From Patescibacteria group bacterium (GTDB lineage Bacteria; Patescibacteriota; Patescibacteriia; UBA10025), in contig JBAZCI010000002.1 of assembly GCA_041671025.1 (NCBI GenBank), positions 3,801 through 67,800 of the forward strand: a stretch of 64,000 nt of DNA. Reading direction: 5' to 3'. The position numbers and the translations under genes were made by a program. Within the stretch, counting starts at the first letter, position 1. Each line of letters starts with the position of its first letter. Of the stretch, positions 2,467 to 56,368 are shown piece by piece. The notes below the pieces were generated by a model. The model had not been told where the DNA came from, did not search any database, and saw only the letters and a list, made by a program, of their open reading frames with translations.

Positions 2467-3306
2467 ATGAACCGCTCATTAACATGGATTTTCATCGCGC
2501 TTATCATTTCCATTCTTCCCATCAACTGTTCTTTCGCATCTGACACCGTGCTTCCGGACTTCATCTGGCAGTGTCACATCGATCATGCCGAGAAATACGG
2601 CACGGCGCATGCGTCAGCAAAGCCGATTGCGTGGGGAACAGGCCTGTACGTTGCAAATAACAGCGAAACGTTATTTTATTTTTTTGCCTCTACCGACGAA
2701 CATGCCTACCTGCAACTTAAAATTTCGGCATTTTTTACATTCGCCCAATGGAAACAAACGAAAGTAAAAGTTGAATGGGCCGACGATATTTGGGGCATCA
2801 ATCCATTTGATCCGTTCACAAGAGTGACGACAACTATCCAGATGCTCAATCTACAAGATACCGGCTATGTCCTGGCAATTGACCGGGCTGTCACGGATCT
2901 GAACGACTTGCCCTTCTTCAAAGATATCACGGTGACTGAATATGACATTCTCACCACACCCTGGTGTTCATGGGAAGCCGACCGATGGGGAGATGTTATC
3001 GTGGACGACAAACAGTGTACGATAAATTTCGACTTTACAAGCCTCGATAATGATCTCCGCTGTCGTATTCACTTCCAGGAGAAGAGTATGTACTCAGCGT
3101 TTGATTGTATCGAATGTCAACAGATCGTTGAAGAACTTCAGCCGATATTTAGCTACCGGCCATACCGTATGAAGTCCGAATATTTTTTTGACTTTGTAAA
3201 CTTCGAGAAGTTTGAAGGCGATTCAACATCGTTCATTCGCACCATCGACAGCATCATGAAAGGCGTCGTTGATCAAGGAAGAATCACTGACGTCGTCTCT
3301 CGATAA
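2467..3306 (+). CDS. Hypothetical secreted protein
   Basis: Start chosen at the ATG 6 nt after GGAGG (2456-2460). Signal-peptide-like N-terminus MNRSLTWIFIALIISILPINCSFASD. 279 aa, Cys/Trp/Asp-rich, no family recognised. Confidence 0.65.
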   Translation: MNRSLTWIFIALIISILPINCSFASDTVLPDFIWQCHIDHAEKYGTAHASAKPIAWGTGLYVANNSETLFYFFASTDEHAYLQLKISAFFTFAQWKQTKVKVEWADDIWGINPFDPFTRVTTTIQMLNLQDTGYVLAIDRAVTDLNDLPFFKDITVTEYDILTTPWCSWEADRWGDVIVDDKQCTINFDFTSLDNDLRCRIHFQEKSMYSAFDCIECQQIVEELQPIFSYRPYRMKSEYFFDFVNFEKFEGDSTSFIRTIDSIMKGVVDQGRITDVVSR

Positions 3307-3383
3307 TACTGGCGCGCTGTTCGCCAATGAGCTGTACTCCGTACGGCTTTTTTTTATTTTTCTTATTCCGCTATACTGCTTAT

Positions 3384-5144
3384 ATGAATACCGTCCAGGA
3401 ACAACTTAAGCGCATCGGAGTCCAGCCGGGCATTTATCAATTTTTTGATCAGACCGGACGGCTTTTGTACATTGGCAAAGCCAAAAATCTCAAAAACCGC
3501 GTGAGATCTTATTTTCACAAACGTGCAGAATTGTCACCCGCTAAACAAATCATGATTGAAAAGATACGCCGGATTGAAACCATTCTCACACATTCCGAAA
3601 CAGAGGCACTGCTCCTGGAATCGACACTCATCAAACAACATCAGCCGCCGTTTAATATTGACCTCAAAGACGACAAAAACTTTCTCTACATCAAGGTCAC
3701 CGTCCAGGAAGAATACCCGAGAGTGTTTGCAACGCGCATCCTCGCCCGGGACAAGGCAAAATATTTCGGACCATTCACGTCAGCCGAAGCGGTACGAGAC
3801 ACGCTTCGTGTATTAAAGAAAATATTCCCCCATCGGAATTTCCAAAAAATGCCGACAAAAACTCACGTCCAGTACCTGACCCGCCGGTATCCGCAATTAT
3901 TCGGTCCCGCACAAAAAACAGAATACCTTGAGCACATCAGGCATATCCTTCTTTTTTTACAGGGACGCTACCGTGAAGTTACCGCACAAGTAACGGAACG
4001 CATGCGGAAAGCCGCGGCAGCAAAGCAATTTGAAAAAGCAGCGCAATACCGGGACTCGCTGCGACTGTTAGATCGTATGCAGGAGCGCCAGCGGGTGATC
4101 TCCACATCACTCAAGACTTTTGACGTTATCGGCATCGCTCAGGAAGAGCAAAAAGTTGCGCTCTCCCTCTGCTTTATCCGTGAAGGCAAACTGCTCGGCA
4201 AAAATGATTTCCTCATGACCAACACAACTGAAGAACCCGTGAAGGAGCTTGTCCGTATTTTTATCGAGCGGTATTACCCTTCATCGCCGGAACATGTCAA
4301 AACAGTCGTTGTCCCCGCGCTTCCGGATACGACAACTGAAATATCCCACGTTTTGGGTATCACACTGGTGCGAGCACAGCGCGGTGAGAAAAAAGCGCTC
4401 GTCGACCTCGCAGAACTCAACGCACGCGACCATCTCATCCGCATATCAACTCGTCAGCCGCTCCAAACGGGGAAAATAAAACAAGCGCTGGTCGAACTTG
4501 CCAAAGAAACGGGGCTGTCCCAACCGCCGCGGAGGATTGAGTGTTTTGATATTTCAAATATTCAGGGCGCGCATCCGGTCGGATCAATGGTAGTTTTTCA
4601 CGACGGTCTTCCTGCTAAGCAAGAATACCGGAAATTTAAAATCAAAACCGTGAAAGGCGCAAACGACCCCGCGATGATGGCTGAAGTATTGAAACGGCGT
4701 TTTGGTCCGTCACATCAAGAGACCTGGAAACGACCCGAATTAATTATTCTTGATGGCGGCAAGGGGCAGCTCTCTATTGTCCATGAAGCCATATCTTCCA
4801 ACCTCAACGGCATTACCCTCCTTGCACTCGCGAAGCGTGAAGAGATCCTCCACCGCCTTGAACACCCGCAGGAAATCATTCTTCCCCCCGGACCCGCATA
4901 TTATCTGATTCAGCGTATCCGAGACGAAGCACACCGGTTTGCAATCGGTTATTACCGCAAGCGCCACCGAAAAAGCTCGATCACGTCAATACTGGATGAA
5001 ATTCCCGGTTTTGGCACCGTCCGCAAACGTGCACTTCTACGTGCGTTTGGATCAATCGATGCCCTGCGTCAGGCTCCCCCAAAAGAGCTTGAACGGCTAG
5101 TCGGTCCTAAAATAGCTCAATCAATTCTAGAAAAACTCTTATGA
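3384..5144 (+). CDS. uvrC: Excinuclease ABC subunit C
   Basis: GIY-YIG motif (GIYQFFDQTGRLLYIGKAKNLKNRVRSYF), a UvrBC-interaction region and a C-terminal (HhH)2-like tail. Start moved to MNTVQEQL because TATACT lies 6 nt upstream. Confidence 0.93.
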   Translation: MNTVQEQLKRIGVQPGIYQFFDQTGRLLYIGKAKNLKNRVRSYFHKRAELSPAKQIMIEKIRRIETILTHSETEALLLESTLIKQHQPPFNIDLKDDKNFLYIKVTVQEEYPRVFATRILARDKAKYFGPFTSAEAVRDTLRVLKKIFPHRNFQKMPTKTHVQYLTRRYPQLFGPAQKTEYLEHIRHILLFLQGRYREVTAQVTERMRKAAAAKQFEKAAQYRDSLRLLDRMQERQRVISTSLKTFDVIGIAQEEQKVALSLCFIREGKLLGKNDFLMTNTTEEPVKELVRIFIERYYPSSPEHVKTVVVPALPDTTTEISHVLGITLVRAQRGEKKALVDLAELNARDHLIRISTRQPLQTGKIKQALVELAKETGLSQPPRRIECFDISNIQGAHPVGSMVVFHDGLPAKQEYRKFKIKTVKGANDPAMMAEVLKRRFGPSHQETWKRPELIILDGGKGQLSIVHEAISSNLNGITLLALAKREEILHRLEHPQEIILPPGPAYYLIQRIRDEAHRFAIGYYRKRHRKSSITSILDEIPGFGTVRKRALLRAFGSIDALRQAPPKELERLVGPKIAQSILEKLL

Positions 5145-5378
5145 CCGTCAAAATACCTTCACCTGCGGATGAAGAGCGCATTGACCGAATATACCGCCTG
5201 CGTGACCACCGCAAAAAACAGCGTATGAAAATTTCGGGCAAAAGCGTTTTCGGCATCCAGCGCATCATTACCGGACGGGCAAAGCGGAAACCCGGCACAT
5301 CCCCCAGAAACAGCCGTCATTGACAACCGAGATGTTATCTGGTATCGTATATCTACACTTTTTTCAGAATTTTTTGTT

Positions 5379-5609
5379 ATGAAAAACATACTCATCATCG
5401 CTCAAATCTGCATTTCCGCTATTCTGGTCGTTGCAATACTGCTTCAGAACAAGGGCGCCGACGCTGGATCAATCTTTGGCGGCGGAGGCGGGGGCGACGG
5501 TAATGTCTATACGACTAAAAGGGGAATTGAAAAAATTCTCTTTATCTCTACCATCGTCATTGCAATCCTTTTTATTGGCATTTCTTTGGCCAACATTGTT
5601 ATCAGCTAA
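5379..5609 (+). CDS. secG: Preprotein translocase subunit SecG
   Basis: 76 aa, two TM segments, with the characteristic LLQNKGADAGSIFGGGG loop. Confidence 0.8.
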   Translation: MKNILIIAQICISAILVVAILLQNKGADAGSIFGGGGGGDGNVYTTKRGIEKILFISTIVIAILFIGISLANIVIS

Positions 5610-5642
5610 AACGCACCGCGTGAAGCGCATAATTTTTTCTGT

Positions 5643-7445
5643 GTGAAACCGACCGTCTTCGATCGCGTCAAAAACATCTTCCATAGGCAGGCGGCGCCGG
5701 AAGCCGCAGCTCAACACGCTGAATGGGATAAAAAGCTGGTTTTTTCCTTGGCGAAATCGCGATTTCCTTCGGTAAGACAGCTCGCCTATTTGCCGCGTTA
5801 TTTATCCCTCCGGGAACGCGTTATTGTGCGTACCGCGATATTTTTGACGGTAGCCGCGATCGTTTTTTTAAGCGCACGATTTTACCAGCGGCATATCGAG
5901 ATCCTCCCGCGTGAAGGTGGCGAATATGTCGAGGCACTCATCGGCCAGCCTCAGCACATTAATCCCGCACTCGCTGGAACTAATGATACAGACATGGATC
6001 TTGCGCGTCTGATGTATTCCAGCCTACTGCGATTTGACGAGAAACAACAGCTCGTGACCGACCTTGCTGAACGCTACGAGATCAGTGAAGACAAAAAAAC
6101 ATACACAGTTATCCTGAAGCAGAACATTCGCTGGCACGACGGCGAACCGCTCACTGCGGACGACGTACTCTTCACCGTAGATACGATACAAAATCCGGTC
6201 ATTAACAGCCCTCTGCTCTCCAGCCTCAAAGGCGTCACCGTGGAAAAGATTGATGACCAAACGGTAAAGTTCACAATCACCGAACCGTTCGCACCGTTCC
6301 TTTCATCGCTCACCTTCGGCATTTTACCTGTGCATATTTGGGGAGACGTACTTCCCGAAAGCATAGGGCTGGCAGAGTTCAATATCCGCCCTGTCGGCTC
6401 CGGCCCGTACCAATTTGCCTCGCTTCAAAAAAATAGGAATGGCGACATCAAGTCATATACCCTCAAATCCTACCGCGGATACCACGGACAGGTACCGTAC
6501 ATCTCTACAATCATGGTCAAGTTTTATCCCGATTTTGACAGCGCGCTTGAAGCGGCAAAAAATAAAAACGTTGACGGTGTCAGCTTTGTTCCCCGGAGTA
6601 AGCAGTCCATGCTCGCGCGCAACGATGATATCCTCATCCGCAGATTTGAATTGCCTCAATACACCGCAATCTTTTTCAACCAAAAAAACGGCCTCATGAA
6701 AGACAAAAGTATCCGCCAAGCCTTTGCCATGGCTGTTGATCGCCAGGCGCTCGTGACACAAGTACTGGGAGCTGACGGGACGCTTGTGAATGGACCAATT
6801 CCGGAGGGGTTCATCGGATACTCTCCTGATATCAGCATTCCCGCATTTGACCCCGTTGCAGCCCGTAAAATACTGGATGACAATAAGTGGGCATTTCTCG
6901 AGGGAGAAACCGTTCGAAAAAAAGGATCCGCCGAGCTGCGATTTACACTCACGACCGTCGATCAGCCCGACTACGTACGGACCGCTGAATTGCTGAAAGC
7001 CGCGTGGGAATCTATTAATGTGGGCGTCACCATCAACATCGTTCCGCCCACCCGTTTCCAGCAGGATATCCTGCGAACGAAAAACTACGAAGCCCTCCTC
7101 TATGGCGAACTTATCGGCTCAGATCCCGACCCATTCCCTTTCTGGCATTCATCTCAAAGTCTCGGCGAAGGACTGAACTTATCCAACTACTTTAACAAGA
7201 ACGCGGACAAACTTCTCCAGGATGCTCGACAGACAACTTCCCTCGAGGAACGGGAAAAGATGTACATCGAATTCCAGAAAATTCTCGCAGACGACCTTCC
7301 CGCTCTTTTCCTCTTTTCTCCTTCATACTTATACGCCGTCCATAAAGATGTTCGCGGCATAGATACCGAGCGCGTCATCCTGCCTACCGACCGTCTTAAC
7401 GGTATTGCAGGATGGTATATCAAAACGCGCCGCGGATGGAAATAA
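5643..7445 (+). CDS. ABC transporter solute-binding protein, family 5 (peptide/nickel type), membrane-anchored
   Basis: GTG start, N-terminal TM (VIVRTAIFLTVAAIVFLSA) and an SBP_bac_5-like body (RWHDGEPLTADDVLFT, VGSGPYQF). No permease or ATPase genes are adjacent. Confidence 0.85.
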   Translation: MKPTVFDRVKNIFHRQAAPEAAAQHAEWDKKLVFSLAKSRFPSVRQLAYLPRYLSLRERVIVRTAIFLTVAAIVFLSARFYQRHIEILPREGGEYVEALIGQPQHINPALAGTNDTDMDLARLMYSSLLRFDEKQQLVTDLAERYEISEDKKTYTVILKQNIRWHDGEPLTADDVLFTVDTIQNPVINSPLLSSLKGVTVEKIDDQTVKFTITEPFAPFLSSLTFGILPVHIWGDVLPESIGLAEFNIRPVGSGPYQFASLQKNRNGDIKSYTLKSYRGYHGQVPYISTIMVKFYPDFDSALEAAKNKNVDGVSFVPRSKQSMLARNDDILIRRFELPQYTAIFFNQKNGLMKDKSIRQAFAMAVDRQALVTQVLGADGTLVNGPIPEGFIGYSPDISIPAFDPVAARKILDDNKWAFLEGETVRKKGSAELRFTLTTVDQPDYVRTAELLKAAWESINVGVTINIVPPTRFQQDILRTKNYEALLYGELIGSDPDPFPFWHSSQSLGEGLNLSNYFNKNADKLLQDARQTTSLEEREKMYIEFQKILADDLPALFLFSPSYLYAVHKDVRGIDTERVILPTDRLNGIAGWYIKTRRGWK

Positions 7446-7591
7446 GACCGTCGCAATAGCGATACATATCCTTTTTTCCCGGCAGCCCGGGATCCTTCAC
7501 ATGATGCCCTGGTGGTGGAATTGTCCTGAACTACGTTGAGTTCACGACATCATGTACCCTCTGTGGCACATCATGGTAGACAACTATTTTA

Positions 7592-7675
7592 GCCGGAGTG
7601 GCGGAACTGGTAGACGCGCACGGTTCAGAGCCGTGTGGGGGTAACCCCGTAGGAGTTCGAGTCTCCTCCCCGGCA
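7592..7675 (+). tRNA. tRNA-Leu (anticodon CAG), long variable arm, no encoded CCA
   Basis: GCCGGAGTGGCGGAACTGGTAGACGCGCACGGTTCAGAGCCGTGTGGGGGTAACCCCGTAGGAGTTCGAGTCTCCTCCCCGGCA. The anticodon stem-loop is CACGG-TTCAGAG-CCGTG, with a T-arm AGGAG-TTCGAGT-CTCCT and one A.C mismatch in the acceptor stem. Confidence 0.85.
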
Positions 7676-7744
7676 TATCTCAACATTAGACTTAAGCAAG
7701 ATTCTCCCATTCTCGATGGGCAGATACAGTAATTATTTCAATCA

Positions 7745-9460
7745 ATGAAAAAAGAACAACCAAATAGACTCAGACAAAAAGTACAGGAAAAAACAACTAA
7801 CGCATTGCGCATTATTCCGCTCGGCGGACAGGAGGAAGTCGGCCGCAATATGACCCTCTTTGAATACGGTAAAGATATCGTTATTCTCGACATGGGCCTG
7901 CAATTCCCCGAAGAAGACATGCTCGGCGTAGACTACATTATTCCGAATATTACCTATTTACGCGGAAAGGAAAAAAATATCCGCGGTGTTATCTTTAGTC
8001 ACGGACATCTCGATCATATCGGCGCTGCGCCCTTATTGCTCGAACGGCTTGGAAATCCGCTCGTCATCGGTCGTCCGCTTACCCTCGCCCTGTTGAAGAA
8101 CAGACAGGAAGACTACAAAAAAGGTTCGGTCAAGCGGCTAAAGACTCTCACCATTAAATCCATTTCAGATACCCTCCGACTTGGAAACTTTACCGTAAAA
8201 TTCTTCCCTGTCGACCACTCGATTATGGATGCCGTCGGCGTCATCCTTGAGACTCCGCACGGCTCTGCAGTCCATCTCGGCGACTGGACGTATGAAAAAG
8301 ATCCGGTCGGACGCCGGGGAGTAGAGTACACGCACCTTTCGCGCCTGCGCAAGCCGACGATTGTTATGCTTGAAAGTTTGGGCTCGACCAATACACGGGA
8401 GCGGGTATCCGAGCAGATGATGTTTACAAATATTGAGAAACTCATTCAGGGCGCACCGGGACGGGTGATCATCGGAACATTCTCCTCGCAAATCGAGCGC
8501 ATCAAGCACATTCTTGAATATGCCCAGCGCATCGGTAAGAAAGTTGCCCTCGACGGATACAGTATGAAAGTAAACATCGAGACGGCAAAAAAGCTCGGCT
8601 ACATCAAGGTTGCCCAGCATGTGCTCATCACACCCGAACAAGTTGATAAATATCCCGATGAAAAGGTAGTGATTATCTGCACGGGTGCCCAGGGAGAGAG
8701 TAACGCAGTTCTCTCGCGCATCGTGACCGGAAATCACCGGTCCATCCGCATCAAAAAGACCGACACTATCATCTTCTCCTCTTCGGTCATTCCGGGCAAT
8801 GAACGTACGATCCAACGGCTCAAAGACAGCCTGTATCGCCTCTGCGACAATGTAGTGCACAGCGATATCATGGACATTCATTCAAGCGGCCACAGCACCG
8901 CACGAGACATGCTGACCGTACTCAAACAGATCAGGCCGAGTTATTTCGTCCCCGTTTATGCAAATCACTATTTCCTTAAGGAAGCCGAGAAGCTCGCGGT
9001 ACGCCACGGATTTCCTAAAGAACATGTGTTCGTTCTCGATAACGGGTCAGTTCTCGAATTTAACAACGGCAAAGCTCAGATTCTGCCCAAAAAAGTTCCG
9101 ACGGATTATGTATTCGTCGACGGACTAGGAGTCGGCGACATTTCACACGTCGTTCTGCGGGACCGACAAACACTCGCCGGCGACGGCATGGTGGTAATCA
9201 TTGTTACCGTCGACGCTAAAACGGGAAAACTGGTCGGCAACCCCGACATCATTTCCCGCGGCTTCGTGCACATGAAAACAAGCACGCGCCTTATTGACGA
9301 GACAAAGAAGAAAATTCAGACTATGTTCCAACAACGTGATCCGCAATCAAAAGCAAACGATGCATATATTGCCAACAAACTGCGGGATGACATTGGTCAG
9401 TTCCTCTTCTCCCGCACGAACCGGCGACCGATGATACTGCCCGTTGTTATTGATGTGTAA
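7745..9460 (+). CDS. rnj: Ribonuclease J
   Basis: Metallo-beta-lactamase motif SHGHLDHIG, a beta-CASP body and an RNase J C-terminal domain. 571 aa. Confidence 0.92.
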   Translation: MKKEQPNRLRQKVQEKTTNALRIIPLGGQEEVGRNMTLFEYGKDIVILDMGLQFPEEDMLGVDYIIPNITYLRGKEKNIRGVIFSHGHLDHIGAAPLLLERLGNPLVIGRPLTLALLKNRQEDYKKGSVKRLKTLTIKSISDTLRLGNFTVKFFPVDHSIMDAVGVILETPHGSAVHLGDWTYEKDPVGRRGVEYTHLSRLRKPTIVMLESLGSTNTRERVSEQMMFTNIEKLIQGAPGRVIIGTFSSQIERIKHILEYAQRIGKKVALDGYSMKVNIETAKKLGYIKVAQHVLITPEQVDKYPDEKVVIICTGAQGESNAVLSRIVTGNHRSIRIKKTDTIIFSSSVIPGNERTIQRLKDSLYRLCDNVVHSDIMDIHSSGHSTARDMLTVLKQIRPSYFVPVYANHYFLKEAEKLAVRHGFPKEHVFVLDNGSVLEFNNGKAQILPKKVPTDYVFVDGLGVGDISHVVLRDRQTLAGDGMVVIIVTVDAKTGKLVGNPDIISRGFVHMKTSTRLIDETKKKIQTMFQQRDPQSKANDAYIANKLRDDIGQFLFSRTNRRPMILPVVIDV

Positions 9461-9557: not shown

Positions 9558-10193
9558 ATGGAAACAATTCTCGGTATCCATCTGAATATTCCCGAACCAT
9601 TTGCACGTCGTATTCTAGAAGCAATTCGCAAAACTCAAATTGTGTATCCGCGAAATTACACATACACACCGCACATGACGCTCTATCTGTGTCGTTTTTC
9701 TGCACGACGTTTTCCGGTCCTCATACACTCGCTGGAAGCACTTCAACTTAAACCAGTTCGTATTACACCCATCGGCGTACGTGCCCACCGGCATAAAAAC
9801 CATGCATTTCTTTCACTTGATCTGGTCCGCACGTCTACAATACTACAGCTTCACGCTCAAATACTCCGTATCGCTAATCCGATGCGCGGAAATCTCCTGC
9901 GATCTCGAGATAAAAGCCGCCTTGCCCAAAATATATTCTCTGCAAAAGAACGGCGACTGTTGTCACAATATGGATACCACCGAGTGGCCGGTGCATATCG
10001 ACCGCATATCACATTAGGCGAAATAGCATGGAAACAAGGTCATTCGAGAGTAACTCAGCTCACGAAAACATTACGCACGCTTAACGGAATAAAAATAACC
10101 CTATCTCATCTTGTCATAGGTATGTACCGCTACGATCAAGCGACCGAAACATACACAGAACCTTCTGTTGAAAGATTGCTTCGCCTTACATGA
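9558..10193 (+). CDS. 2H phosphoesterase family protein (RNA 2',3'-cyclic phosphodiesterase / LigT-like)
   Basis: Two H-x-T/S-x motifs (TPHMTLYL and RPHITLGE) at the expected spacing. Start placed at METILG so that the upstream hairpin stays non-coding; the start itself is uncertain. Confidence 0.7.
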   Translation: METILGIHLNIPEPFARRILEAIRKTQIVYPRNYTYTPHMTLYLCRFSARRFPVLIHSLEALQLKPVRITPIGVRAHRHKNHAFLSLDLVRTSTILQLHAQILRIANPMRGNLLRSRDKSRLAQNIFSAKERRLLSQYGYHRVAGAYRPHITLGEIAWKQGHSRVTQLTKTLRTLNGIKITLSHLVIGMYRYDQATETYTEPSVERLLRLT

Positions 10194-10230: not shown

Positions 10231-11217
10231 ATGAAACATATCGTGTTATCAGGAATTAAGCCTTCGGGTAAGCTCCACATCGGCAACTACCTCGGCGCTA
10301 TTAAGTCGTGGCTTGAATTGCAGGACGAGCATGAATGCATCTTTGGTATCATGGATTTGCATGCGCTGACTCAGGGTCCCAAGCCGGAAGATCTCCGTCA
10401 AGCGGTGTTCGATATCGCGGTTGATTACCTGGCCGCCGGTCTCGACCCGGAGAAATCAATCTTCATGGTTCAGTCATTCGTCCCCGAACACGCCGAGCTG
10501 GCCTGGATTTTTGACACGATCACGCCTATTTCATGGCTGGAACGCGTGCCGACATATAAGGACAAATCCAAACAGTACGCCGGAAGTCAGAATATCGGAC
10601 TACTCAATTATCCGGTGCTCATGGCGGCGGATATTCTCCTGTATAAATCAAACCTGGTGCCCGTCGGCGAAGACCAACTGCCTCATATCGAACTGACACG
10701 TGAAATTGCACGCACATTCAACGCTAAGTACGGACAATTCTTTCCCGAACCCGCGCATAAGCTGAGCCGGTCGGGAGCACGAATTATGAGCCTGACGCAT
10801 CCGGAAAAAAAGATGGAGAAGTCATTGGGTGAAAAAAATTATATCGCCCTTTCCGATACTCCGGAGATTATTGCAAAAAAACTTGCATCAGCCGTTACGG
10901 ACAGCGGCACAACGGGGGGCAAGGGAAAAGTACCCGGCGTCGCAAACCTCTTCGCCCTTGTGCATATTTTTTCGTCACCGGAGACCGCCGAAACATTTGA
11001 AGCCGCGTACCGGGCAAAAACAATCAAATATTCCGAGGTGAAGGCGAAACTCGCCGAAGACATCGCAGAATACTTTGAACCGTTTCGAAAACGGCGCGAT
11101 GAATTGCGCAAAAATCCGAAGCATGTGTGGGACGTACTGCGTGAAGGCAGTCTGCGGGCAAAAAAGATTGCTGAAAAAAATCTCAACCAGATCAAGAAGC
11201 TGGTCGGATTGCAATAA
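10231..11217 (+). CDS. trpS: Tryptophan--tRNA ligase
   Basis: HIGH-type motif GKLHIGNYLG, a KMSKS-type motif KKMEKS and class Ic TrpRS length (328 aa). Confidence 0.93.
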   Translation: MKHIVLSGIKPSGKLHIGNYLGAIKSWLELQDEHECIFGIMDLHALTQGPKPEDLRQAVFDIAVDYLAAGLDPEKSIFMVQSFVPEHAELAWIFDTITPISWLERVPTYKDKSKQYAGSQNIGLLNYPVLMAADILLYKSNLVPVGEDQLPHIELTREIARTFNAKYGQFFPEPAHKLSRSGARIMSLTHPEKKMEKSLGEKNYIALSDTPEIIAKKLASAVTDSGTTGGKGKVPGVANLFALVHIFSSPETAETFEAAYRAKTIKYSEVKAKLAEDIAEYFEPFRKRRDELRKNPKHVWDVLREGSLRAKKIAEKNLNQIKKLVGLQ

Positions 11218-11282
11218 CAGGCTCGGATCCCGTATCAGCGGGGTGTTTTGTTGTAAAAAAAAGACCGTCGAATCACCAACGG

Positions 11283-11804
11283 TCAGACAATGCTTGCGTA
11301 AAGTTTTGAGGTGCGCAGCTGTCCCTGTAACGTTACAAACGACGGTCGGGGCTGGATAAACCACCACGCTCGCGCATTAACGCCGGAGAGTGCGCGAACA
11401 GAGTCGTACAATGGGCCATATCGTTGTATGCCACCGATAAAAACGATATTCCCGGGTTTAATCGGCTCTGTAGGACGGGGTACGATAATAATTCGGACAT
11501 CGTGTAAAAATACATCATTATAGATGTACGAACACGAATGCAGCGGGTCCGGAAAAAATGCCTTTTCCGTCACCCAGAACAACATTTGCATATTACTGCC
11601 GGCCGTATCCACGTACGGCAAGGTGTCGACGATGACGCCTCCTCCATACGCTCTTTCAAGCAGATCTTCCTCTTCCATGCGCGCACTGTCGCGCATCCGA
11701 TCCGACAAATCGACTATAAAGGTGCTGGTGGATGACTGCAGTCCCCATGCAATCGCAAAGACAACGAGCACGACAACAGTCAACCTGAAACATTTGGTGT
11801 TCAT
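11283..11804 (-). CDS. Hypothetical secreted or membrane-anchored protein
   Basis: 173 aa with an N-terminal hydrophobic segment FRLTVVVLVVFAIAWGL. SD GGGAGG lies 7 nt upstream, a TTGACA-17-TAAGGT promoter lies upstream, and a hairpin plus T-run lies downstream (about 11255-11282). Confidence 0.55.
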   Translation of the reverse strand: MNTKCFRLTVVVLVVFAIAWGLQSSTSTFIVDLSDRMRDSARMEEEDLLERAYGGGVIVDTLPYVDTAGSNMQMLFWVTEKAFFPDPLHSCSYIYNDVFLHDVRIIIVPRPTEPIKPGNIVFIGGIQRYGPLYDSVRALSGVNARAWWFIQPRPSFVTLQGQLRTSKLYASIV

Positions 11805-11949
11805 GGCTTGTTCCTCCCGAAAAAGTGAAAATTAAGGTGCAGATATTGAAAGACCTTATCATCGCACGCCCAACCTGTCAACCGGCTGTGTACACAAAAA
11901 CCGGGCTTTCTTGAGCTCGTCCCGAAGCTTCCGTGATGTTCCCTCACTG

Positions 11950-36786: not shown

Positions 36787-37473
36787 TTATGAAGGCCTGG
36801 GTTCAACTAGAATACTACGGGTGATTTTCTGCTCCGCCCCGCGCGGTTTGCGGGAAATAATGACAATAGTATTCAACCCTTCGGTCAGTTCAAGTGTTTC
36901 CGAAAAATTGCCGGAGCTGTCAGGGACAACCTCTTCGTCATTTATAAAGATTGTGGCCTCAGGCTCCGTCGTGCCCTCGACCAATATTGACGGTTCTGTG
37001 ATCCGTATGTTTTCCGCCGGTGACCTCAGAATAAGTTCGGGCGGGGCGGTAATACGTCGCGCTTCTACGCCCAGATATACTACGATTGCCAGCACGACTA
37101 GAATTATGCCAGTTCGTTTTATTGTCTGCGGTGTGATAATTGCACGGGGAATTCGTTTTTCATTCTCCAGGGAAGCCCGCGCCCGCTTATCATGCTGAGA
37201 TTGAAACACTTTGCGCTCCTGATCATATGCATAGATAACGGTCTCTGCATTGACGTCAAGATACACGGCCAACTGTCGCAGAAAATTGCGCACATACACG
37301 TCGCTCGGCAAATCCAAATACCGGCTCTCTTCGATTGCCTTGAGATGCTTTAATTGAACGTGTATCGAGTCGGCTACGGTTTCCAATTCTACGCCCCGTT
37401 CTATACGCACTTTCTGGAGCCGTTCGCCGAGCGTCCCGCGTATGCGAAGACCACGGGCGGTAAAATCACTCAT
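36787..37473 (-). CDS. Helix-turn-helix (Cro/C1-type) membrane protein, RodZ-like
   Basis: N-terminal HTH LGERLQKVRIERGVELETVADSIHVQLKHLKAIE, one TM (IILVVLAIVVYLGV) and an extracytoplasmic C-terminal domain. Start at MSDFTARG overlaps the ftsK stop by 8 nt. Confidence 0.7.
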   Translation of the reverse strand: MSDFTARGLRIRGTLGERLQKVRIERGVELETVADSIHVQLKHLKAIEESRYLDLPSDVYVRNFLRQLAVYLDVNAETVIYAYDQERKVFQSQHDKRARASLENEKRIPRAIITPQTIKRTGIILVVLAIVVYLGVEARRITAPPELILRSPAENIRITEPSILVEGTTEPEATIFINDEEVVPDSSGNFSETLELTEGLNTIVIISRKPRGAEQKITRSILVEPRPS

Positions 37474-39711
37474 ATTTTTGCTCGGACGTATCTTCTGTCT
37501 CGTCCCCCTCTTCTTCAGGAGCATCCGCGACGGCCTCATCGGTATCTACGGGAACATCCAAACCGGACGGAGTTGACCGTACAAGAATTTCTCTGGGCTT
37601 GGCTCCGTCACCGGGACCGATGACCCCCTGTTCTTCCAGCAAATCAAGCAGGCGTGCCGCACGAGCATACCCCACGCGCAACCGCCGTTGTAAAAGCGAC
37701 GCCGAGGCCTTGCCCGCCTTGATAACAAGATCCTTTGCCTGACTTAACAATTCGTCGTCCCCAAGGTCTTCAAAATTGCCGCTCAACGTTTCATCCACGA
37801 TAAGTTTCTCAACCACCTCAGGATGGTAATCCGGTTTGCCTTGCTCGCGCAAAAAGTTGGTGACGCGTTCAATCTCATCATTGCTCACAAACACGCCCTG
37901 CAGACGGCGGGGCTTGGATAGCTGAGCGGTAACGAACAGCATGTCGCCCTTGCCGAGCAATTTTTCTGCGCCGCTCGTATCAAGAATCGTGCGGGAATCA
38001 ACGACAGAAGCGACGCTGAATGCAATCCGTGAAGTAATATTTGCCTTGATCAGTCCGGTAATAACGTCAACGGAGGGACGTTGGGTTGCAACAACCAGAT
38101 GAATCCCCACCGCGCGGGCCATTTGCGCAAGCCGGATAATAGCTGACTCTACCTCATGCATTGCGACGGCCATCAGGTCGGCAAGCTCATCAATGACGAC
38201 AACAATATACGGAAGCTGATCGCCGATCGGCGCATGATTATAATCGGCAATATTCCGCTGACCATGCTTCGAAAGCAGGTCAAAACGCCGATCCATTTCA
38301 GCGACCACCCAGCGCAGAGCATTAATCGTTTTGTTGACATTGGTGACCACCGGGGTAATCAAATGAGGAATATCATTGTAAACAGGCATTTCTACCCGTT
38401 TTGGATCGACGAGTATCAGCTTTAACTGATCGGGAGAATTTTGATACAAAAGACTCAACAGAATGGAATTGATGCAAACAGACTTTCCCGATCCGGTAGC
38501 GCCGGCGATAAGCAAATGCGGCATCGAATCGAGATCTGCGAGCCACGGTACCCCGGAAACAGATTCGTTTTTCGTTTTTTGAATTCACTGCTTTCAAGCA
38601 TCTGCCGTAAGCGGACGGTCGCGATAGATTTGTTTGGAACTTCGATACCGACAAGCGACTTGCCGGGAATGGGCGCCTCAATACGGATTGGGTGTGCGGC
38701 AAGTGCAAGCGCGAGATCATTGGACAACGTCGTGAGTTGGGCAAGCTTCACTCCTTCTGCGGGTTTCAACGTATACTGTGTTACCGTCGGCCCGACATTT
38801 ACTTCGCTCATCTCTACCGGTATGCCAAAGTTGGCGAGCGTTTTGTGTATCCGCTCCTTATTCGCCTCTATATCACCGCTTATCGGCTTCGTATTATTTT
38901 GATCCAATAAATCGGTCGGGACAGGAATTTTCTTCTTCACACGCTTAACTTCCGGAAACATCTCCTGCTGAGCGCTGCCCGATGCTGCTTGTTGAGAGGT
39001 TGCTCCCACGGTCAATGGCGCAATCTGCGACTTCGTGGATTCTTCCAGCGGCTGTCGGCTGAATGAAGAATCACCCGAGTCTTCCTCATATCCTTTACGT
39101 GTATCAAGGTTTGTTCTTATTTTCCCAAAGAAATCCCTTACCCGTCCGCCCAATCGTTGCACAATAGTACCGTGCTGCATAAGCGACGTAAGCGACATAT
39201 CAAATGAGAGAAGGAGAGAAATAATCAGCAAGCCAAAAAGGACAATCCCGGTTGCCAATCCGCCCATGATTTTTTGCAACGGATACGAAAGCGAGAGACC
39301 GAGATACCCCCCGCCGCGCGATTCTCCGATGACATCCGTCGCCTGATCAAGAGGAACAAAAAGATGGAAGAAACCCGTTAATGCAATGATAAAGAGGAGC
39401 ATTCCCAAGTAATGTGAAAATCGGAGTTTATATTTTTCCGGCTTCATTAAGACATACCCCAGGAAAATCATTACTGCGGGAGCGATAAGAATCGGGATGC
39501 CAAATAATGTATGCAATCCTGAATTAATGTTCTGACCGACTCCACCCGCCAAATCGAACATGCTCAAGAGCGCAAGTGCGGCCAACATGAATAACACGAC
39601 TACGACGATCCCGTGCTTTGTTTCTGTACGAAGACGTTGCGGCTCCTTTTGGGGAACCTGTTCTCCTCTTTCAGGTCTGCGATGCGTTCTTGGTGTTTGG
39701 ATAACAGCCAT
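37466..39711 (-). pseudogene. ftsK: DNA translocase FtsK/SpoIIIE, interrupted by an apparent frameshift into two overlapping ORFs (39711..38455 and 38524..37466)
   Basis: The N-terminal ORF has 4-5 TM segments, a linker and the alpha domain (NVGPTVTQYTLKPAEGVK). The C-terminal ORF starts MPHLLIAGATGSGKSV (Walker A) and has the DELADLM motif and a gamma winged helix (LLQRRLRVGYARAARLLDLLEE). The frames differ by one nucleotide. Confidence 0.8.
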
Positions 39712-39743
39712 ATTTTCTTTTGTAATGTACTATGCATCCTACC

Positions 39744-39781
39744 ACAAAAAGCCCCTAAAATCAATAGAAATGTCGATTATT
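39744..39781 (+). repeat. 38-bp direct repeat, left copy (R1)
   Basis: ACAAAAAGCCCCTAAAATCAATAGAAATGTCGATTATT, 36/38 identical to 42020-42057. Its reverse complement contains TTGATT, placed as a -35 for ftsK (17 nt to TAGGAT). Confidence 0.85.
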
Positions 39782-39878
39782 GCGTCGGGATATACAAGGA
39801 ATATTTTTTTAATACAAAAAAGGTCCGAACAATTGTATGTCCAGACCACATCTTCCGCGTATAGTGGAAAATTCACGG

Positions 39879-40115
39879 TTACAAAGCTTCCAAGATCATC
39901 TGGATATAAGCCGCTCCCCGACAACCGGAATCTTTGATCAGCATTTGCGCCTCTTCCACTGAAACCGCTTCGGCCTGCAATGCTTCCGCCAAATCCGGCT
40001 TCATGATACTTAAGTTGAATGTGCCCTCACTTTCACACCACTTAAATATCCCGACCTTCCCATCAAGAAGGTCCTTAGCCTTTTTCCGGGCATGTTCAGT
40101 GACTTTTTTTGCCAC
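39879..40115 (-). CDS. Hypothetical small protein (79 aa)
   Basis: GTG start 5 nt after GGAGGA (40122-40127 on the plus strand). VAKKVTEHARKKAKDLLDGKVGIFKW...EEAQMLIKDSGCRGAAYIQMILEAL. The longer track ORF adds a hydrophobic, SD-less extension. Confidence 0.5.
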   Translation of the reverse strand: MAKKVTEHARKKAKDLLDGKVGIFKWCESEGTFNLSIMKPDLAEALQAEAVSVEEAQMLIKDSGCRGAAYIQMILEAL

Positions 40116-40159
40116 AACTATCCTCCACGTGTTACAAAAGATCAAGAAATATTCAACGT

Positions 40160-40188
40160 AGATTAGCATTGAATATCCCCTTTGTCAA
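40160..40188 (-). promoter_or_regulatory. Sigma-70 consensus-like promoter (leftward) for the 79-aa ORF
   Basis: On the minus strand: TTGACA (40188-40183), 17-nt spacer, TAATCT (40165-40160). Confidence 0.55.
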
Positions 40189-40240
40189 TATCACTACTAC
40201 TAGAAAACAATGTTAATCTGTGTAATTCTGATACAGACGC

Positions 40241-40269
40241 TTGACAAAACTAACCCCCTATGATAGTAT
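40241..40269 (+). promoter_or_regulatory. Sigma-70 consensus-like promoter (rightward) with an extended -10
   Basis: TTGACA (40241-40246), 17-nt spacer ending TGa, TAGTAT (40264-40269). Confidence 0.7.
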
Positions 40270-40331
40270 GCTTTGTTTTGTACGTTGAAAAAAACTTCGT
40301 AGGCAGGCCGCTAAAAATGAACAGTACAGCC

Positions 40332-40387
40332 GGATCCCTCACCCTTCATGGCTCCCATTCGTTTGCCATTCAAGGTTCGGGATGGTG
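40332..40387. repeat. Conserved imperfect hairpin motif, copy B (inside the 5' leader of the 40516 operon)
   Basis: GGATCCCTCACC-(30 nt)-GGTTCGGGATGGTG. The apical stem is ATGGC/GCCAT. The motif is enclosed by an outer 9-bp stem, 40298-40306 / 40402-40410. Confidence 0.6.
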
Positions 40388-40515
40388 TTGCTTTTAGAGG
40401 ACTGCCTGTGTAAGTCATAGACAGTCATGTTCACTCAAACCCGATCAACTCTACAACGGTGTAGGGAAGGTGCAGGGTAAGGGTATCGAGCATGAAACGT
40501 ATGGAGGAAAACCAT

Positions 40516-41196
40516 ATGTCAAAATTCACTGCCTCTTTTGAGGTACTGGACCGACGGAACGGGGAATTTAACCCCTTCTACGGACCTACCCCTGTTATCG
40601 CATCCGGCGATGCATTTCAAGGAGTTAAGTGCGTCACCATAAGTGTGGACGATACCGGCCATCACTTTCATTTCGATGACTATCAGGTCTTTAAGACATT
40701 GTTAGATGGTCCTACTTTTTTTCCGTTTCACGCACGGGTCAATGTCCCGTGGGACAGCGAAGACTCCACGATGTGGTGGCAACAGTGGAAAACTGTTGTT
40801 GCTGGCATTCCGCGCGAAAAGGTTAAACCGGTTAAAATCCTGGATTTACGCGATGGACAGTTTTCATCGCTAGATCTAGGCATCTGGCTACACGGATGTC
40901 GCATATATGCGATTTTTCCGTTAACTGAAGACGACTTGTTCGAAGTCGCCCAGAAAGTGACTGAGGCGATGAAGAATCAAAACGTTTTTCAAATTGCCGT
41001 GCAGATGCTTCTGTACTACGCCTCCCAACCTGAGCCCCAAAAAGCCGAGTCGCTTTTTACAAGCGACGATGCCAACTTGTTGGCGGAAATTCAGACCCTT
41101 TTCCACGGGCACAAGAAATTCCGTGAAACAATCGGGGAATCGCGGCTTGCGAACTTTGCTCGCCGCGTTCATGAAGCGATTAACGCGGGTCTCTGA
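40516..41196 (+). CDS. Hypothetical soluble protein (226 aa)
   Basis: ATG 7 nt after GGAGGA. His/Trp-rich segments (GHHFHFDDY, MWWQQWK). No family recognised. Confidence 0.65.
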   Translation: MSKFTASFEVLDRRNGEFNPFYGPTPVIASGDAFQGVKCVTISVDDTGHHFHFDDYQVFKTLLDGPTFFPFHARVNVPWDSEDSTMWWQQWKTVVAGIPREKVKPVKILDLRDGQFSSLDLGIWLHGCRIYAIFPLTEDDLFEVAQKVTEAMKNQNVFQIAVQMLLYYASQPEPQKAESLFTSDDANLLAEIQTLFHGHKKFRETIGESRLANFARRVHEAINAGL

Positions 41197-41277
41197 TCCG
41201 CACAACCATTAACTCAACTCCGGTCAACCGTGAACCATACAAGGTTCACGGAAGGCGCAGGAGAAGGGAGAAGCTCA

Positions 41278-41910
41278 ATGAATTGGCAACAATACAAAAA
41301 GGCTGAGATGATTGCTCGGACACACCCCGTGGCTCACATCATCAAAGGTCACCAAAGGCATATTGGGATGATTTCTATAATGGCAATATCCATCTTTTGC
41401 CTAGAAATCATAGCCGCGTTACGCATTGAAAATGCGATAACGCCGCATTATTGGTTAAGAACTCCGTTTCCCCAGACTGCAAATTGGGTAGGCGCCTCTT
41501 ATTATCTTCTTTTCATCTGCTTTTGCGTAATGGTGAATAAAGTTTGGACTATGTTCAGTTCACCGACAATTAAGAGAAGAAAGATTGATGGTCAGGATCG
41601 CATCTTAGCACAATTTCGTTCTGTGGAATGGATCGACATCACGAACTCATTTCTTGACACTTCATTCATTCCGCTGGAAAAAGTGTTTGTTACTGTTGAA
41701 GTTGATGACGTCAGAACTGGAGATGCTATTACCTTGCCAGTGGGTACGACACAGATCGAACCTTTTCCCTACATAACACCCGACAATGGGTACTTCGTAA
41801 AACTCAAAAGCGATATCAGAATGTACTTTTCAGTAGCAGTTGGGTTTTGGCTTACATGTCTCATTCCCCCTACTGTGTGGCTATTTATCACTTTTAGTTT
41901 GACGAAATAA
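41278..41910 (+). CDS. Hypothetical membrane protein (210 aa, about 3 TM)
   Basis: ATG after GGAGAAGGGAG. TM segments IGMISIMAISIFCLEIIAAL, GASYYLLFICFCVMV and FSVAVGFWLTCLIPPTVWLFITF. Confidence 0.65.
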   Translation: MNWQQYKKAEMIARTHPVAHIIKGHQRHIGMISIMAISIFCLEIIAALRIENAITPHYWLRTPFPQTANWVGASYYLLFICFCVMVNKVWTMFSSPTIKRRKIDGQDRILAQFRSVEWIDITNSFLDTSFIPLEKVFVTVEVDDVRTGDAITLPVGTTQIEPFPYITPDNGYFVKLKSDIRMYFSVAVGFWLTCLIPPTVWLFITFSLTK

Positions 41911-41933
41911 TTTGTTCGTTTCATTTTAGACCC

Positions 41934-41971
41934 CCCCTACCTGGTTATCAACTAGGTAGGGGTATTTTTTT
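41934..41971 (+). terminator. Rho-independent terminator
   Basis: CCCCTACCTGG-ttatcaa-CTAGGTAGGGG followed by TATTTTTTT. Confidence 0.85.
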
Positions 41972-42019
41972 ACTCATTAAATCCATACGCGACTAAAGTC
42001 GCTAGGAAAAATAAAGAAT

Positions 42020-42057
42020 ACAAAAAGTCCCTAAAATCAATAGAAATATCGATTATT
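42020..42057 (+). repeat. 38-bp direct repeat, right copy (R2)
   Basis: ACAAAAAGTCCCTAAAATCAATAGAAATATCGATTATT. Confidence 0.85.
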
Positions 42058-42071
42058 ATTTACCCGGCCAC

Positions 42072-42100
42072 GAGATTGCTTCGTAGAACTCGCAATGACA
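42072..42100. repeat. Short palindromic element, GAGAT...ATGACA family (copy 4, short form)
   Basis: GAGATTGCTTCG-tagaa-CTCGCAATGACA. The arms match the reverse complement of copy 1 (2295-2341), but it lacks the inner hairpin. Confidence 0.7.
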
Positions 42101-42160
42101 TGATTTGTTATCCCAAAAAGCCCCCGGCAGGAACGCCGAGGGCTTTTTTATTAGACAGGG

Positions 42161-53984: not shown

Positions 53985-54136
53985 AAACTTCTTACTGGTG
54001 ATAAGAGGGCGCGAACACATTTCCTTCTTATCTTTTCCCCGCCATAAGCGGGAATGGATGTGGCACCACTCGCATTTCTGCGCGGTTGCCGGGAGGTCAT
54101 AGGGCCAGTTCCCTCGCTCCGCTCACGATAAGATAT
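53985..54136 (-). promoter_or_regulatory. SAM-I (S-box) riboswitch in the metK leader
   Basis: The minus strand reads AUCUUAUCGUGAGCGGAGCGAGGGAACUGGCCCUAUGACCUCCCGGCAACC...GGUGCCACAUCC...AAAGAUAAGAAG. P1 is CUUAUC/GAUAAG, and the conserved GAGGGA, CUGGCCC, AUGA, CCGGCAACC and GGUGCCA blocks appear in canonical order. Downstream, CCCUCUUAUC can pair alternatively with the 3' half of P1, followed by a U7 tract. Confidence 0.9.
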
Positions 54137-56296: not shown

Positions 56297-56368
56297 TGCC
56301 CTCGACAGGAGTTGAACCTGTGTCCCAGGCTTCGGAGGCCTGTACACTATCCACTGTGCTACGAGGGC
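56297..56368 (-). tRNA. tRNA-Arg (anticodon CCG)
   Basis: The minus strand reads GCCCTCGTAGCACAGTGGATAGTGTACAGGCCTCCGAAGCCTGGGACACAGGTTCAACTCCTGTCGAGGGCA. The acceptor stem is a perfect 7 bp, the anticodon loop is CTCCGAA, and the T-arm is ACAGG-TTCAACT-CCTGT. Confidence 0.9.

Follow-up and report, generated by a model that had tools for sequence, protein, structure and literature searches.

Two groups of described systems come closest to the locus treated here. On the DNA side stand small islets bounded by att-type direct repeats and the integrative mobile elements exploiting Xer (IMEX), which lack an integrase and borrow XerCD at dif. On the RNA side stand 5' leaders that sequester the Shine-Dalgarno (SD) sequence, namely translational riboswitches, the ROSE and fourU thermometers, autoregulatory ribosomal-protein leaders, and phage operators. 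Patescibacteria (the candidate phyla radiation, CPR) have tiny genomes, in which few mobile elements can be recognised and few regulatory RNAs have been described, and, to our knowledge, little is known of how they gain and regulate genes. Here we examine a 64-kb window (the whole stretch of DNA analysed, 64,000 nt of contig JBAZCI010000002.1 from a Patescibacteria genome) and, within it, a cassette of about 2.3 kb between ftsK and rpoC, which is bracketed by two 38-bp direct repeats (the 38-mers) and carries, behind a structured leader RNA, two open reading frames (ORFs), one for a soluble protein (ORF2) and one for a membrane protein (ORF3). We conclude that the cassette probably holds an accessory operon, acquired horizontally and governed by a new translational operator RNA that acts in cis, a reading built on a covarying RNA structure, on the recurrence of the operon at other chromosomal sites, and on synteny.

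The RNA is best seen in an irregular hairpin motif of ~55 nt, one copy of which stands before every cistron of this operon and of its relatives in two other Patescibacteria lineages. There are seven copies: two in the window, three in locus L003 (one of them before a LemA gene), and two in locus L007. The structure drawn by eye, which RNAalifold independently recovers from the seven copies, leaves 96.2% of the alignment cells paired, as against 39-51% when the pairing partners are slid. Seven pairs show compensatory change, with a covariation score reached by none of 500 shuffles, and one of these changes is orthologous (a G:C pair that is A:U in window copy 1). No variation is seen in two bulges, in two identical 2x2 internal loops (CAAC opposite GAAG), or in U:G pairs at three positions; these pairs exist on the sense strand only, the opposite strand offering C-A mismatches, which points to a motif that acts as RNA rather than as folded DNA. 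Its purine-rich 3' strand, GGAAGGYGYAGGRNAAGGG(AG), carries the SD 5-7 nt before each start codon. In having a covarying sense-strand structure in a 5' untranslated region or intercistronic spacer, the motif agrees with structured cis-regulatory RNAs as a generic class.

Ahead of ORF2, the motif is part of a larger leader that also comprises a long hairpin (P1), a linker, a closing helix (P2), and a small hairpin (P6), so that both the SD and the AUG of ORF2 are placed within helical elements. The 3' 115 nt of this leader are 85-90% identical across the three lineages vs 59-72% for the ORF2 coding sequence, and from the linker to the ORF2 AUG 90 of 104 alignment columns are invariant. The minimum-free-energy folds of the three leaders agree, with z-scores of -3.7 to -5.7, and a hand-built consensus alignment of the full leader, which contains motif copy 1, has 97.5% of its cells paired and three compensatory pairs. 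The tip of P1 (40313-40401) is 89 nt long in the window, where the other two lineages have 22-23 nt; the surplus lengthens the hairpin and brings in a terminator-like stem with a T-run (40364-40387 plus TTGCTTTTAG), perhaps as an attenuator, perhaps as no more than an inserted expansion. Two alternative readings of the leader's coding content were rejected: a small ORF inside the conserved part (ATGTTCACT...) has no SD and is broken in the window by a 1-nt indel in the P5 loop, while an upstream in-frame ATG at 40492, tried as the start of ORF2, gives MKRM-stop in L003 and is out of frame in L007.

The motif RNA and ORF2 are strictly co-distributed. A covariance model run over 237 kb (the window plus the other loci) returns the known copies only, at 67-87 bits, the next best hit scoring 19 bits. 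Degenerate pattern scans of one genome each of 185,579 species, of JGI metagenomes and of IMG/VR place the motif in the three ORF2-bearing lineages, the viral collection of IMG/VR giving no match; single pattern hits in Solibacteraceae, Bryobacterales, Bacillus cereus and others were set aside as chance, with covariance-model scores of at most 19 bits. Rfam 15 (4227 families) matches neither leader nor motif, whether at the gathering threshold over the whole window or at E<=10 over 39700-42160, where the interval 40277-41280 holds only snoRNA noise inside ORF2. The window's sole matches at the gathering threshold are a SAM-I riboswitch (54025-54134, 74 bits) and a tRNA (56297-56368), both on the minus strand. 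In the literature on structured RNAs of CPR bacteria we found nothing specific.

ORF2 itself is an orphan with two homologues, at 50% and 47% identity, among 5.8 billion cluster representatives; these come from annotated Patescibacteria in groundwater metagenomes, and a profile search of 1.84 billion representatives of ~15 billion proteins added no further member, finding only a known one. The homologues lie at other chromosomal sites, one flanked by aspS and LemA (L003-L006), the other by a 412-aa gene and the gene of a class II tRNA synthetase (L007-L009). In L003 and L007, ORF2 is preceded by a near-consensus promoter, at a position equivalent to that in the window, and by a long leader, and is followed by the gene for a small protein with three transmembrane (TM) segments. 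The latter proteins have the layout of ORF3 and no significant sequence similarity to it, and the genes found behind the motif are non-homologous (3-TM proteins of 210, 224 and 123 aa, and LemA). A search for flanking direct repeats at the L003 and L007 modules found none. Since the sites elsewhere are unrelated and have neither repeats nor the 78-aa leftward ORF of the window, the conserved unit is the rightward operon (promoter, leader, ORF2, motif, 3-TM gene) and not the whole bracketed segment.

Two observations concern these other loci. In L003, from a Hainich groundwater lineage, the third motif copy (within 11129-11810) precedes the LemA-family gene and ties LemA to the regulatory unit of ORF2 and the 3-TM protein. 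In L007, a 27-nt direct repeat of 78% identity, whose core is palindromic (GGATTATGAATCC / GGATTCATAATCC), has one copy (8325-8351) upstream of the 412-aa gene and another (9750-9776) just ahead of the module promoter; it may be an operator common to the two transcription units.

In the window, the operon lies inside a promoter-to-terminator segment bracketed by the 38-mers, in the minus-strand gene order rpoB, rpoC, cassette, ftsK, HTH_25 gene, recA. The 38-mers agree at 36 of 38 positions and are the only two copies in the window (0/100 shuffles gave any match); a search with their 17-mer core, allowing three mismatches, recovers the same two copies alone. When each copy is aligned with 60 nt of flank, the homology ends abruptly on both sides and the flanks are unrelated. 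On the ftsK strand the repeat reads AATAATCGACATTTCTATTGATTTTAGGGGCTTTTTGT and contains TTGATT, the likely -35 of a putative, weak ftsK promoter (8/12; TTGATT 39764-39759, 17 nt, TAGGAT 39741-39736, minus strand), overlapped by an imperfect 8-4-8 palindrome, AATCGACA-TTTC-TATTGATT. After the right copy comes TCTTTA, so no usable -10 is available there. The GC content of the cassette is 44.5%, that of the window 48.0%.

Comparison with other genomes marks the DNA between the 38-mers as inserted between two core genes. We compared synteny in four distant relatives (L023, L024, L025, and L026), and rpoC directly adjoins ftsK in two of them: in L024 and L025, rpoB-rpoC is followed by a spacer of 128 and 275 nt, respectively, and then by ftsK-HTH25(-recA). 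L023 carries another insert of 4.9 kb in the same spacer (3110-8000), encoding proteins of 245, 931, 66, and 69 aa, and L026 is rearranged at this locus. In-silico removal of the window's insert together with one 38-mer leaves a spacer of 173 nt, within the range of the relatives. Against two strain contigs of other assemblies the window has 99.2% (L001) and 98.8% (L002) identity, and the differences amount to 6-26 single-nucleotide polymorphisms (SNPs) per kb in recA, ftsK, rpoC, and rpoB; across the cassette and both repeats there is not a single difference from L002, and in L001 the identical tract runs on to 42397, the next longest such tract being ~1.3 kb. A monomorphic cassette in a polymorphic background fits a recent arrival, a sweep, or presence in a single haplotype. 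The initial annotation had described two near-identical 38-mers seen nowhere else in the window, the left one overlapping what looked like the ftsK -35 and the right one without a usable -10, and had placed the segment as an insertion between core genes. These descriptions all hold, the first on the shuffles, the second as a reading of a weak promoter, and the third on the rpoC-ftsK adjacency of L024 and L025, the different insert of L023, and the SNP-free cassette.

The relatives and the strain contigs offer further observations. In the L023 insert, the 931-aa protein is Peptidase_C25-like, and the small ORFs of 66 and 69 aa are Cys-rich and have a repeated 23-nt unit in common; accessory genes seem to have settled in the rpoC-ftsK spacer more than once. 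L026, whose FtsK is ~47% identical, has a 70-nt direct repeat of 84% identity just upstream of ftsK (6347-6416 and 7791-7860), which brackets genes for a 200-aa protein and a Peptidase_S51, a second repeat-bracketed insert beside ftsK in the clade. The heptamer AATCGAC, which may or may not be meaningful, occurs in both this repeat and the window 38-mer. The window's own ftsK is read as two overlapping minus-strand ORFs (38455-39711 and 37466-38524): by comparison with L001 and L002, which encode an intact FtsK of 755 aa, the window is without 22 nt (ACGCCCAGTCCTAATGCAAGAG) after 38558 and the frame is shifted, either through an assembly error in a highly polymorphic stretch or through a genuine disruption in the window strain.

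The features of the cassette are collected in Table 1.

Table 1. Positions of the repeats, genes, signals and RNA elements of the cassette, in window coordinates.
Feature	Position	Strand	Remarks
Left 38-bp direct repeat copy	39744..39781	.	Holds putative ftsK -35 and imperfect 8-4-8 palindrome
Right 38-bp direct repeat copy (36/38)	42020..42057	.	Downstream of rpoC terminator (42115-42148); without usable -10
Difference-free tract vs L001 and L002	39701..42253	.	Covers cassette and both repeats; contig comparison
Leftward terminator	39847-39822	-	Scan
Leftward orphan ORF, 78 aa	39879..40115	-	GTG start 40115, GGAGGA 40126-40121; coding status unproven
Leftward putative promoter	TTGACA 40190-40185 / TAATCT 40167-40162	-	17-nt spacing, sequence reading
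Operon promoter TTGACA-17-(TG)TAGTAT	40241..40269	+	Strong sigma-70-type, extended TG; scan
Structured leader RNA, ~239 nt	40277..40515	+	Folding and consensus alignment
P1, long hairpin with variable tip	40294-40415	+	Tip 66 nt longer than in other two lineages
Invariant linker CAUAGACAG	40416-40424	+	
P2, closing helix	40425-40432 pairs 40488-40495	+	
Motif copy 1, irregular hairpin	40434..40483	+	P3 CUC:GGG, P4, two CAAC/GAAG 2x2 loops, variable P5
P6, small hairpin	40497-40504 pairs 40512-40519	+	ORF2 SD in loop, AUG in stem
ORF2, soluble protein, 226 aa	40516..41196	+	ATG 40516; family has three members in total
Motif copy 2, ORF2-ORF3 spacer	41213..41268	+	3' strand AGGAG/GGGAG; ORF3 AUG 7 nt after GGGAG
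ORF3, membrane protein, 210 aa	41278..41910	+	Three TM segments 29-47, 68-89, 186-204; ~100-aa loop
Operon intrinsic terminator	41934..41972	+	13-bp stem (41934-41962) plus T-run

Much of the layout proposed in the initial annotation is recovered. The rightward leader of about 240 nt with its conserved hairpin motif is there, more conserved than had been supposed and with its core recurring before each cistron; so are the soluble, His/Trp-rich ORF and the 3-TM ORF, and the strong terminator that closes the operon. Other parts need amendment. Of the back-to-back near-consensus promoters, the rightward one stands, while the leftward one is readable, weaker, and below the threshold of the promoter scan. 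The leftward ORF and its GGAGGA-GTG start exist, with a length of 78 and not 79 aa; as an orphan that is absent from the L003 and L007 module loci, it loses its place as the module's 'regulator-like' gene. The view of the bracketed 2.3 kb as one self-contained module gives way, in turn, to that of a rightward unit which alone recurs elsewhere.

All three proteins had been called unassignable, and they remain so after profile-HMM and homology searches: none matches a family in Pfam, PADLOC, PHROGs, or NCBIfam, or any PDB sequence. ORF2 is acidic (pI 5.6; 5.6-6.1 across its family), and its C-terminal half (GIWLHGCRIYAIFPLTE) is the part conserved best; members of the family have 8-10 His residues, with His50, His52, His199, and Cys128 invariant. 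A structure model built from the three-sequence alignment (AlphaFold, pLDDT 42) is too poor to judge the fold. ORF3 has no detectable homologues. The 78-aa ORF has none either by protein search, and its model (AlphaFold, pLDDT 52) is too poor to use. The proteins may have an accessory role related to the cell envelope.

We propose the following course of events. Acquired DNA would have entered a groundwater Patescibacteria genome at the spacer between rpoC and ftsK, which is normally short, and a copy of the 38 bp with the ftsK -35 region would have come to lie at either end, so that ftsK kept its promoter. The portable core would be the operon, with its near-consensus promoter, ~240-nt leader, orphan soluble ORF2, and small 3-TM protein. 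In its transcript the SD would sit in the purine-rich 3' strand of each hairpin, with P1, P2, and P6 additionally enclosing the start codon of ORF2. Control is most likely exerted on translation: a single trans-acting factor, whether a small ligand or ion or a protein, may recognise the invariant CAAC/GAAG loops and bulges and either stabilise or open the helix that hides each ribosome-binding site, and all cistrons would then switch together. That the RNA occurs strictly with ORF2 suggests that the operator has a dedicated partner. A bolder and less probable version makes the RNA a new regulatory class (a riboswitch or the operator of a dedicated protein) that travels with an orphan family, as a self-regulating unit, among groundwater Patescibacteria and enters by a route that duplicates tens of target base pairs, independently of a recombinase or with one supplied in trans.

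Several observations weigh against this proposal. The nearest FtsK relatives in 5.8 billion proteins are only ~50% identical, and the insertion is therefore inferred from synteny, not from an empty site at the nucleotide level; no empty-site contig from the same population was found, the search for contigs with the neighbouring HTH25 protein yielding one cassette-bearing contig only. The SNP-free tract could partly reflect how an assembler resolves mixed strains. With the module in three lineages only, the covariation draws on few independent events, and among the seven motif copies there are paralogues beside orthologues. P3 has only 3 bp over the SD of ORF3, where occlusion may be weak, and the promoters, the leader and the regulation are all predicted. 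ORF2, tried as the RNA-binding factor, is disfavoured by its acidic pI. The flanking repeats are absent from the L003 and L007 modules, and the doubling of the 38-mer is therefore no trait of the module as such. Lastly, as the initial annotation had said, the cassette has no integrase or transposase: scans of its three ORFs against Pfam, NCBIfam, and PHROGs found no recombinase or transposase, and no terminal inverted repeats join its ends.

The last of these points bears directly on how the DNA arrived. An insertion sequence or transposon is poorly matched, there being no transposase gene, no inverted repeats, and a duplication of 38 bp where 2-14 bp is expected. The repeats do look like the attL and attR of an integrase-mediated island (36/38, sharp edges), but no tyrosine or serine recombinase lies in or next to the segment, whose neighbours are ftsK and rpoC. 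A dif/IMEX route was considered and is unlikely, since the GC skew keeps its negative sign from one end of the 64-kb window to the other and does not switch near 40 kb, which is not what a terminus dif would give; read by eye, the 38-mer accommodates an 11-6-11 layout with an arm symmetry of 7/11, and its arms do not seem to resemble the dif consensus. The cassette DNA matched none of 50,697 phage and 72,556 plasmid records searched for a phage or plasmid origin. What fits is att-type site-specific integration by an enzyme acting in trans and probably encoded elsewhere, or Campbell-type integration of a circle through ~38 bp of homology. No recombinase is present, and the target duplication that had been proposed at the outset is one of several mechanisms that would give the same picture. 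Separately, the 5' part of the left 38-mer region (39740-39755, TACCACAAAAAGCCCC) resembles an arm of the rpoC terminator (42109-42124, TATCCCAAAAAGCCCC) at 14 of 16 positions, a likeness that could be fortuitous or could be left over from the building of the spacer.

The conservation of the leader raises the question of whether it could be a riboswitch in the strict sense, responding to a metal ion or small molecule that ORF2 and the membrane protein would then handle. Unpaired and loop nucleotides are extremely conserved (the 90 invariant columns among 104), as they are in aptamer cores, the SD and AUG lie within helices, and a His/Trp-rich protein with a membrane partner, acidic and unlikely to bind RNA, would accord with such a role. 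However, riboswitch classes normally span many gene families and taxa, whereas this RNA is tied to ORF2 in three lineages; the short downstream copies, without P1 and P2, seem too simple for an aptamer, and there is no likeness to a known class. We consider a riboswitch in this sense unlikely.

We think no better of the odds of a defence or toxin module, in which ORF2 would sense infection or stress, the 3-TM protein would disrupt the membrane, and the leader would keep the toxic product off. The setting is suggestive, in that a small accessory operon sits at a variable spot and is monomorphic within a polymorphic population, a fast-evolving or replaceable membrane partner accompanies a conserved ORF2, and a strong promoter is paired with a start site hidden by structure. 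The initial annotation had leaned towards such a function, which finds no support in the proteins themselves: the three were run against the 5027 models of PADLOC-DB 2.0 (E<=1) as well as Pfam, NCBIfam, and PHROGs with no match, and no nuclease, NTPase, protease or other effector domain is recognisable in them. Nor is LemA, which the motif also precedes in L003, a known defence gene, and neither the phage and plasmid records nor the IMG/VR motif scan yielded a relative.

It is improbable that there was no insertion at all and that the locus is ancestral, the 38-mers being duplicated regulatory sites (an operator plus -35, bound by a palindrome-recognising regulator) maintained by selection. 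This reading takes in the 8-4-8 palindrome over the ftsK -35, the absence of a recombinase and of inverted ends, and the two other modules without flanking repeats, but relatives keep rpoC beside ftsK and the module occupies unrelated sites in other genomes. Selection on an operator also sits badly with a right-hand copy that has no -10 and faces only a terminator, with conservation of the full 38 bp to sharp edges beyond the palindrome, and with a cassette free of SNPs.

We give as little credence to the motif being a signal for RNA processing or stabilisation, such as an endonuclease cut or 5' protection for each cistron, and not an on/off switch. One copy does stand 5' of every cistron, its purine-rich tract (AGGAG...GGGAG) is SD-like, and its restriction to ORF2 loci would allow ORF2 to be the processing enzyme; against this, ORF2 shows no recognisable nuclease fold or motif (its structure model being too poor to judge) and no ribozyme family of Rfam is matched. 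Least probable of all, and very improbable in our view, is a folded recombination site at the DNA level, attC-like, that swaps genes behind ORF2: non-homologous genes (the 210-, 224- and 123-aa 3-TM proteins and LemA) do follow directly upon a hairpin whose stem varies and whose unpaired bases are conserved, but the three invariant U:G pairs become C-A mismatches on the other strand, the motif contains the SD at a fixed distance from each start codon, no copy follows the last gene in any of the operons, although an attC would be expected there, and by reading no RYYYAAC/GTTRRRY core sites are present and no integron integrase lies nearby.

The acquired, RNA-controlled operon that we favour matters on three counts. 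The locus offers a dated insertion, with a monomorphic cassette in a polymorphic population and a spacer without insert in two of the four distant relatives compared; the same orphan operon is found at three unrelated chromosomal sites in three lineages; and a structured RNA before every cistron is an unusual way of co-regulating an operon. If the RNA does bind a ligand or protein, it would add a regulatory RNA class to a phylum in which very few have been described and would give a first clue to what the orphan proteins do. The reach is limited to three lineages and touches no long-standing question directly; the evidence for the RNA is good and the architecture is unusual.

Set beside known systems, the cassette shares with att-bounded islets and integrase-less IMEX a discrete insert in a spacer between core genes, with sharply bounded repeats. 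As in the islets, one copy of the repeat restores the interrupted function, here the ftsK -35 region, and as in IMEX there is no recombinase and the repeat holds an imperfect palindrome. It differs from them in its size of only 2.2 kb, with no integrase in the segment and no tRNA as target; unlike IMEX, it does not sit at a terminus dif, as the sign of the skew is constant in the window, and the operon has no repeats at its other sites.

The type III toxin-antitoxin systems (ToxIN-like) also combine a repeated structured RNA with a small accessory operon, in which the RNA and one protein family co-occur. Here, however, the copies are not in tandem and have whole genes between them, no terminator separates the RNA from the gene, and PADLOC detects no ToxN- or AbiE-like protein. 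Integron cassettes and their attC sites resemble the operon in that small genes unrelated to one another, the downstream ones differing between genomes, are set apart by short folded elements of conserved shape and variable stem, but in our case the element lies 5' of the gene and includes its SD, its G-U pairing is strand-specific, and the operon has its own promoter and terminator, with no IntI, no core sites, and no element after the last gene; by reading, no 3' attC core pairs occur, and an integrase was not called in any locus.

The SD-sequestering leaders offer a further comparison. Like them, the RNA is a covarying, structured 5' leader with the ribosome-binding site and start codon in predicted helices, and its internal loops are conserved enough for recognition. 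In contrast to them, the core element stands before each cistron and not once at the 5' end, and it occurs, in three lineages, with a single orphan gene family only and has no Rfam match. The small repeat-bounded islet and the SD-occluding cis-regulatory RNA are kinds that were already known; what is new here is the structured RNA and the orphan, portable operon that it accompanies.

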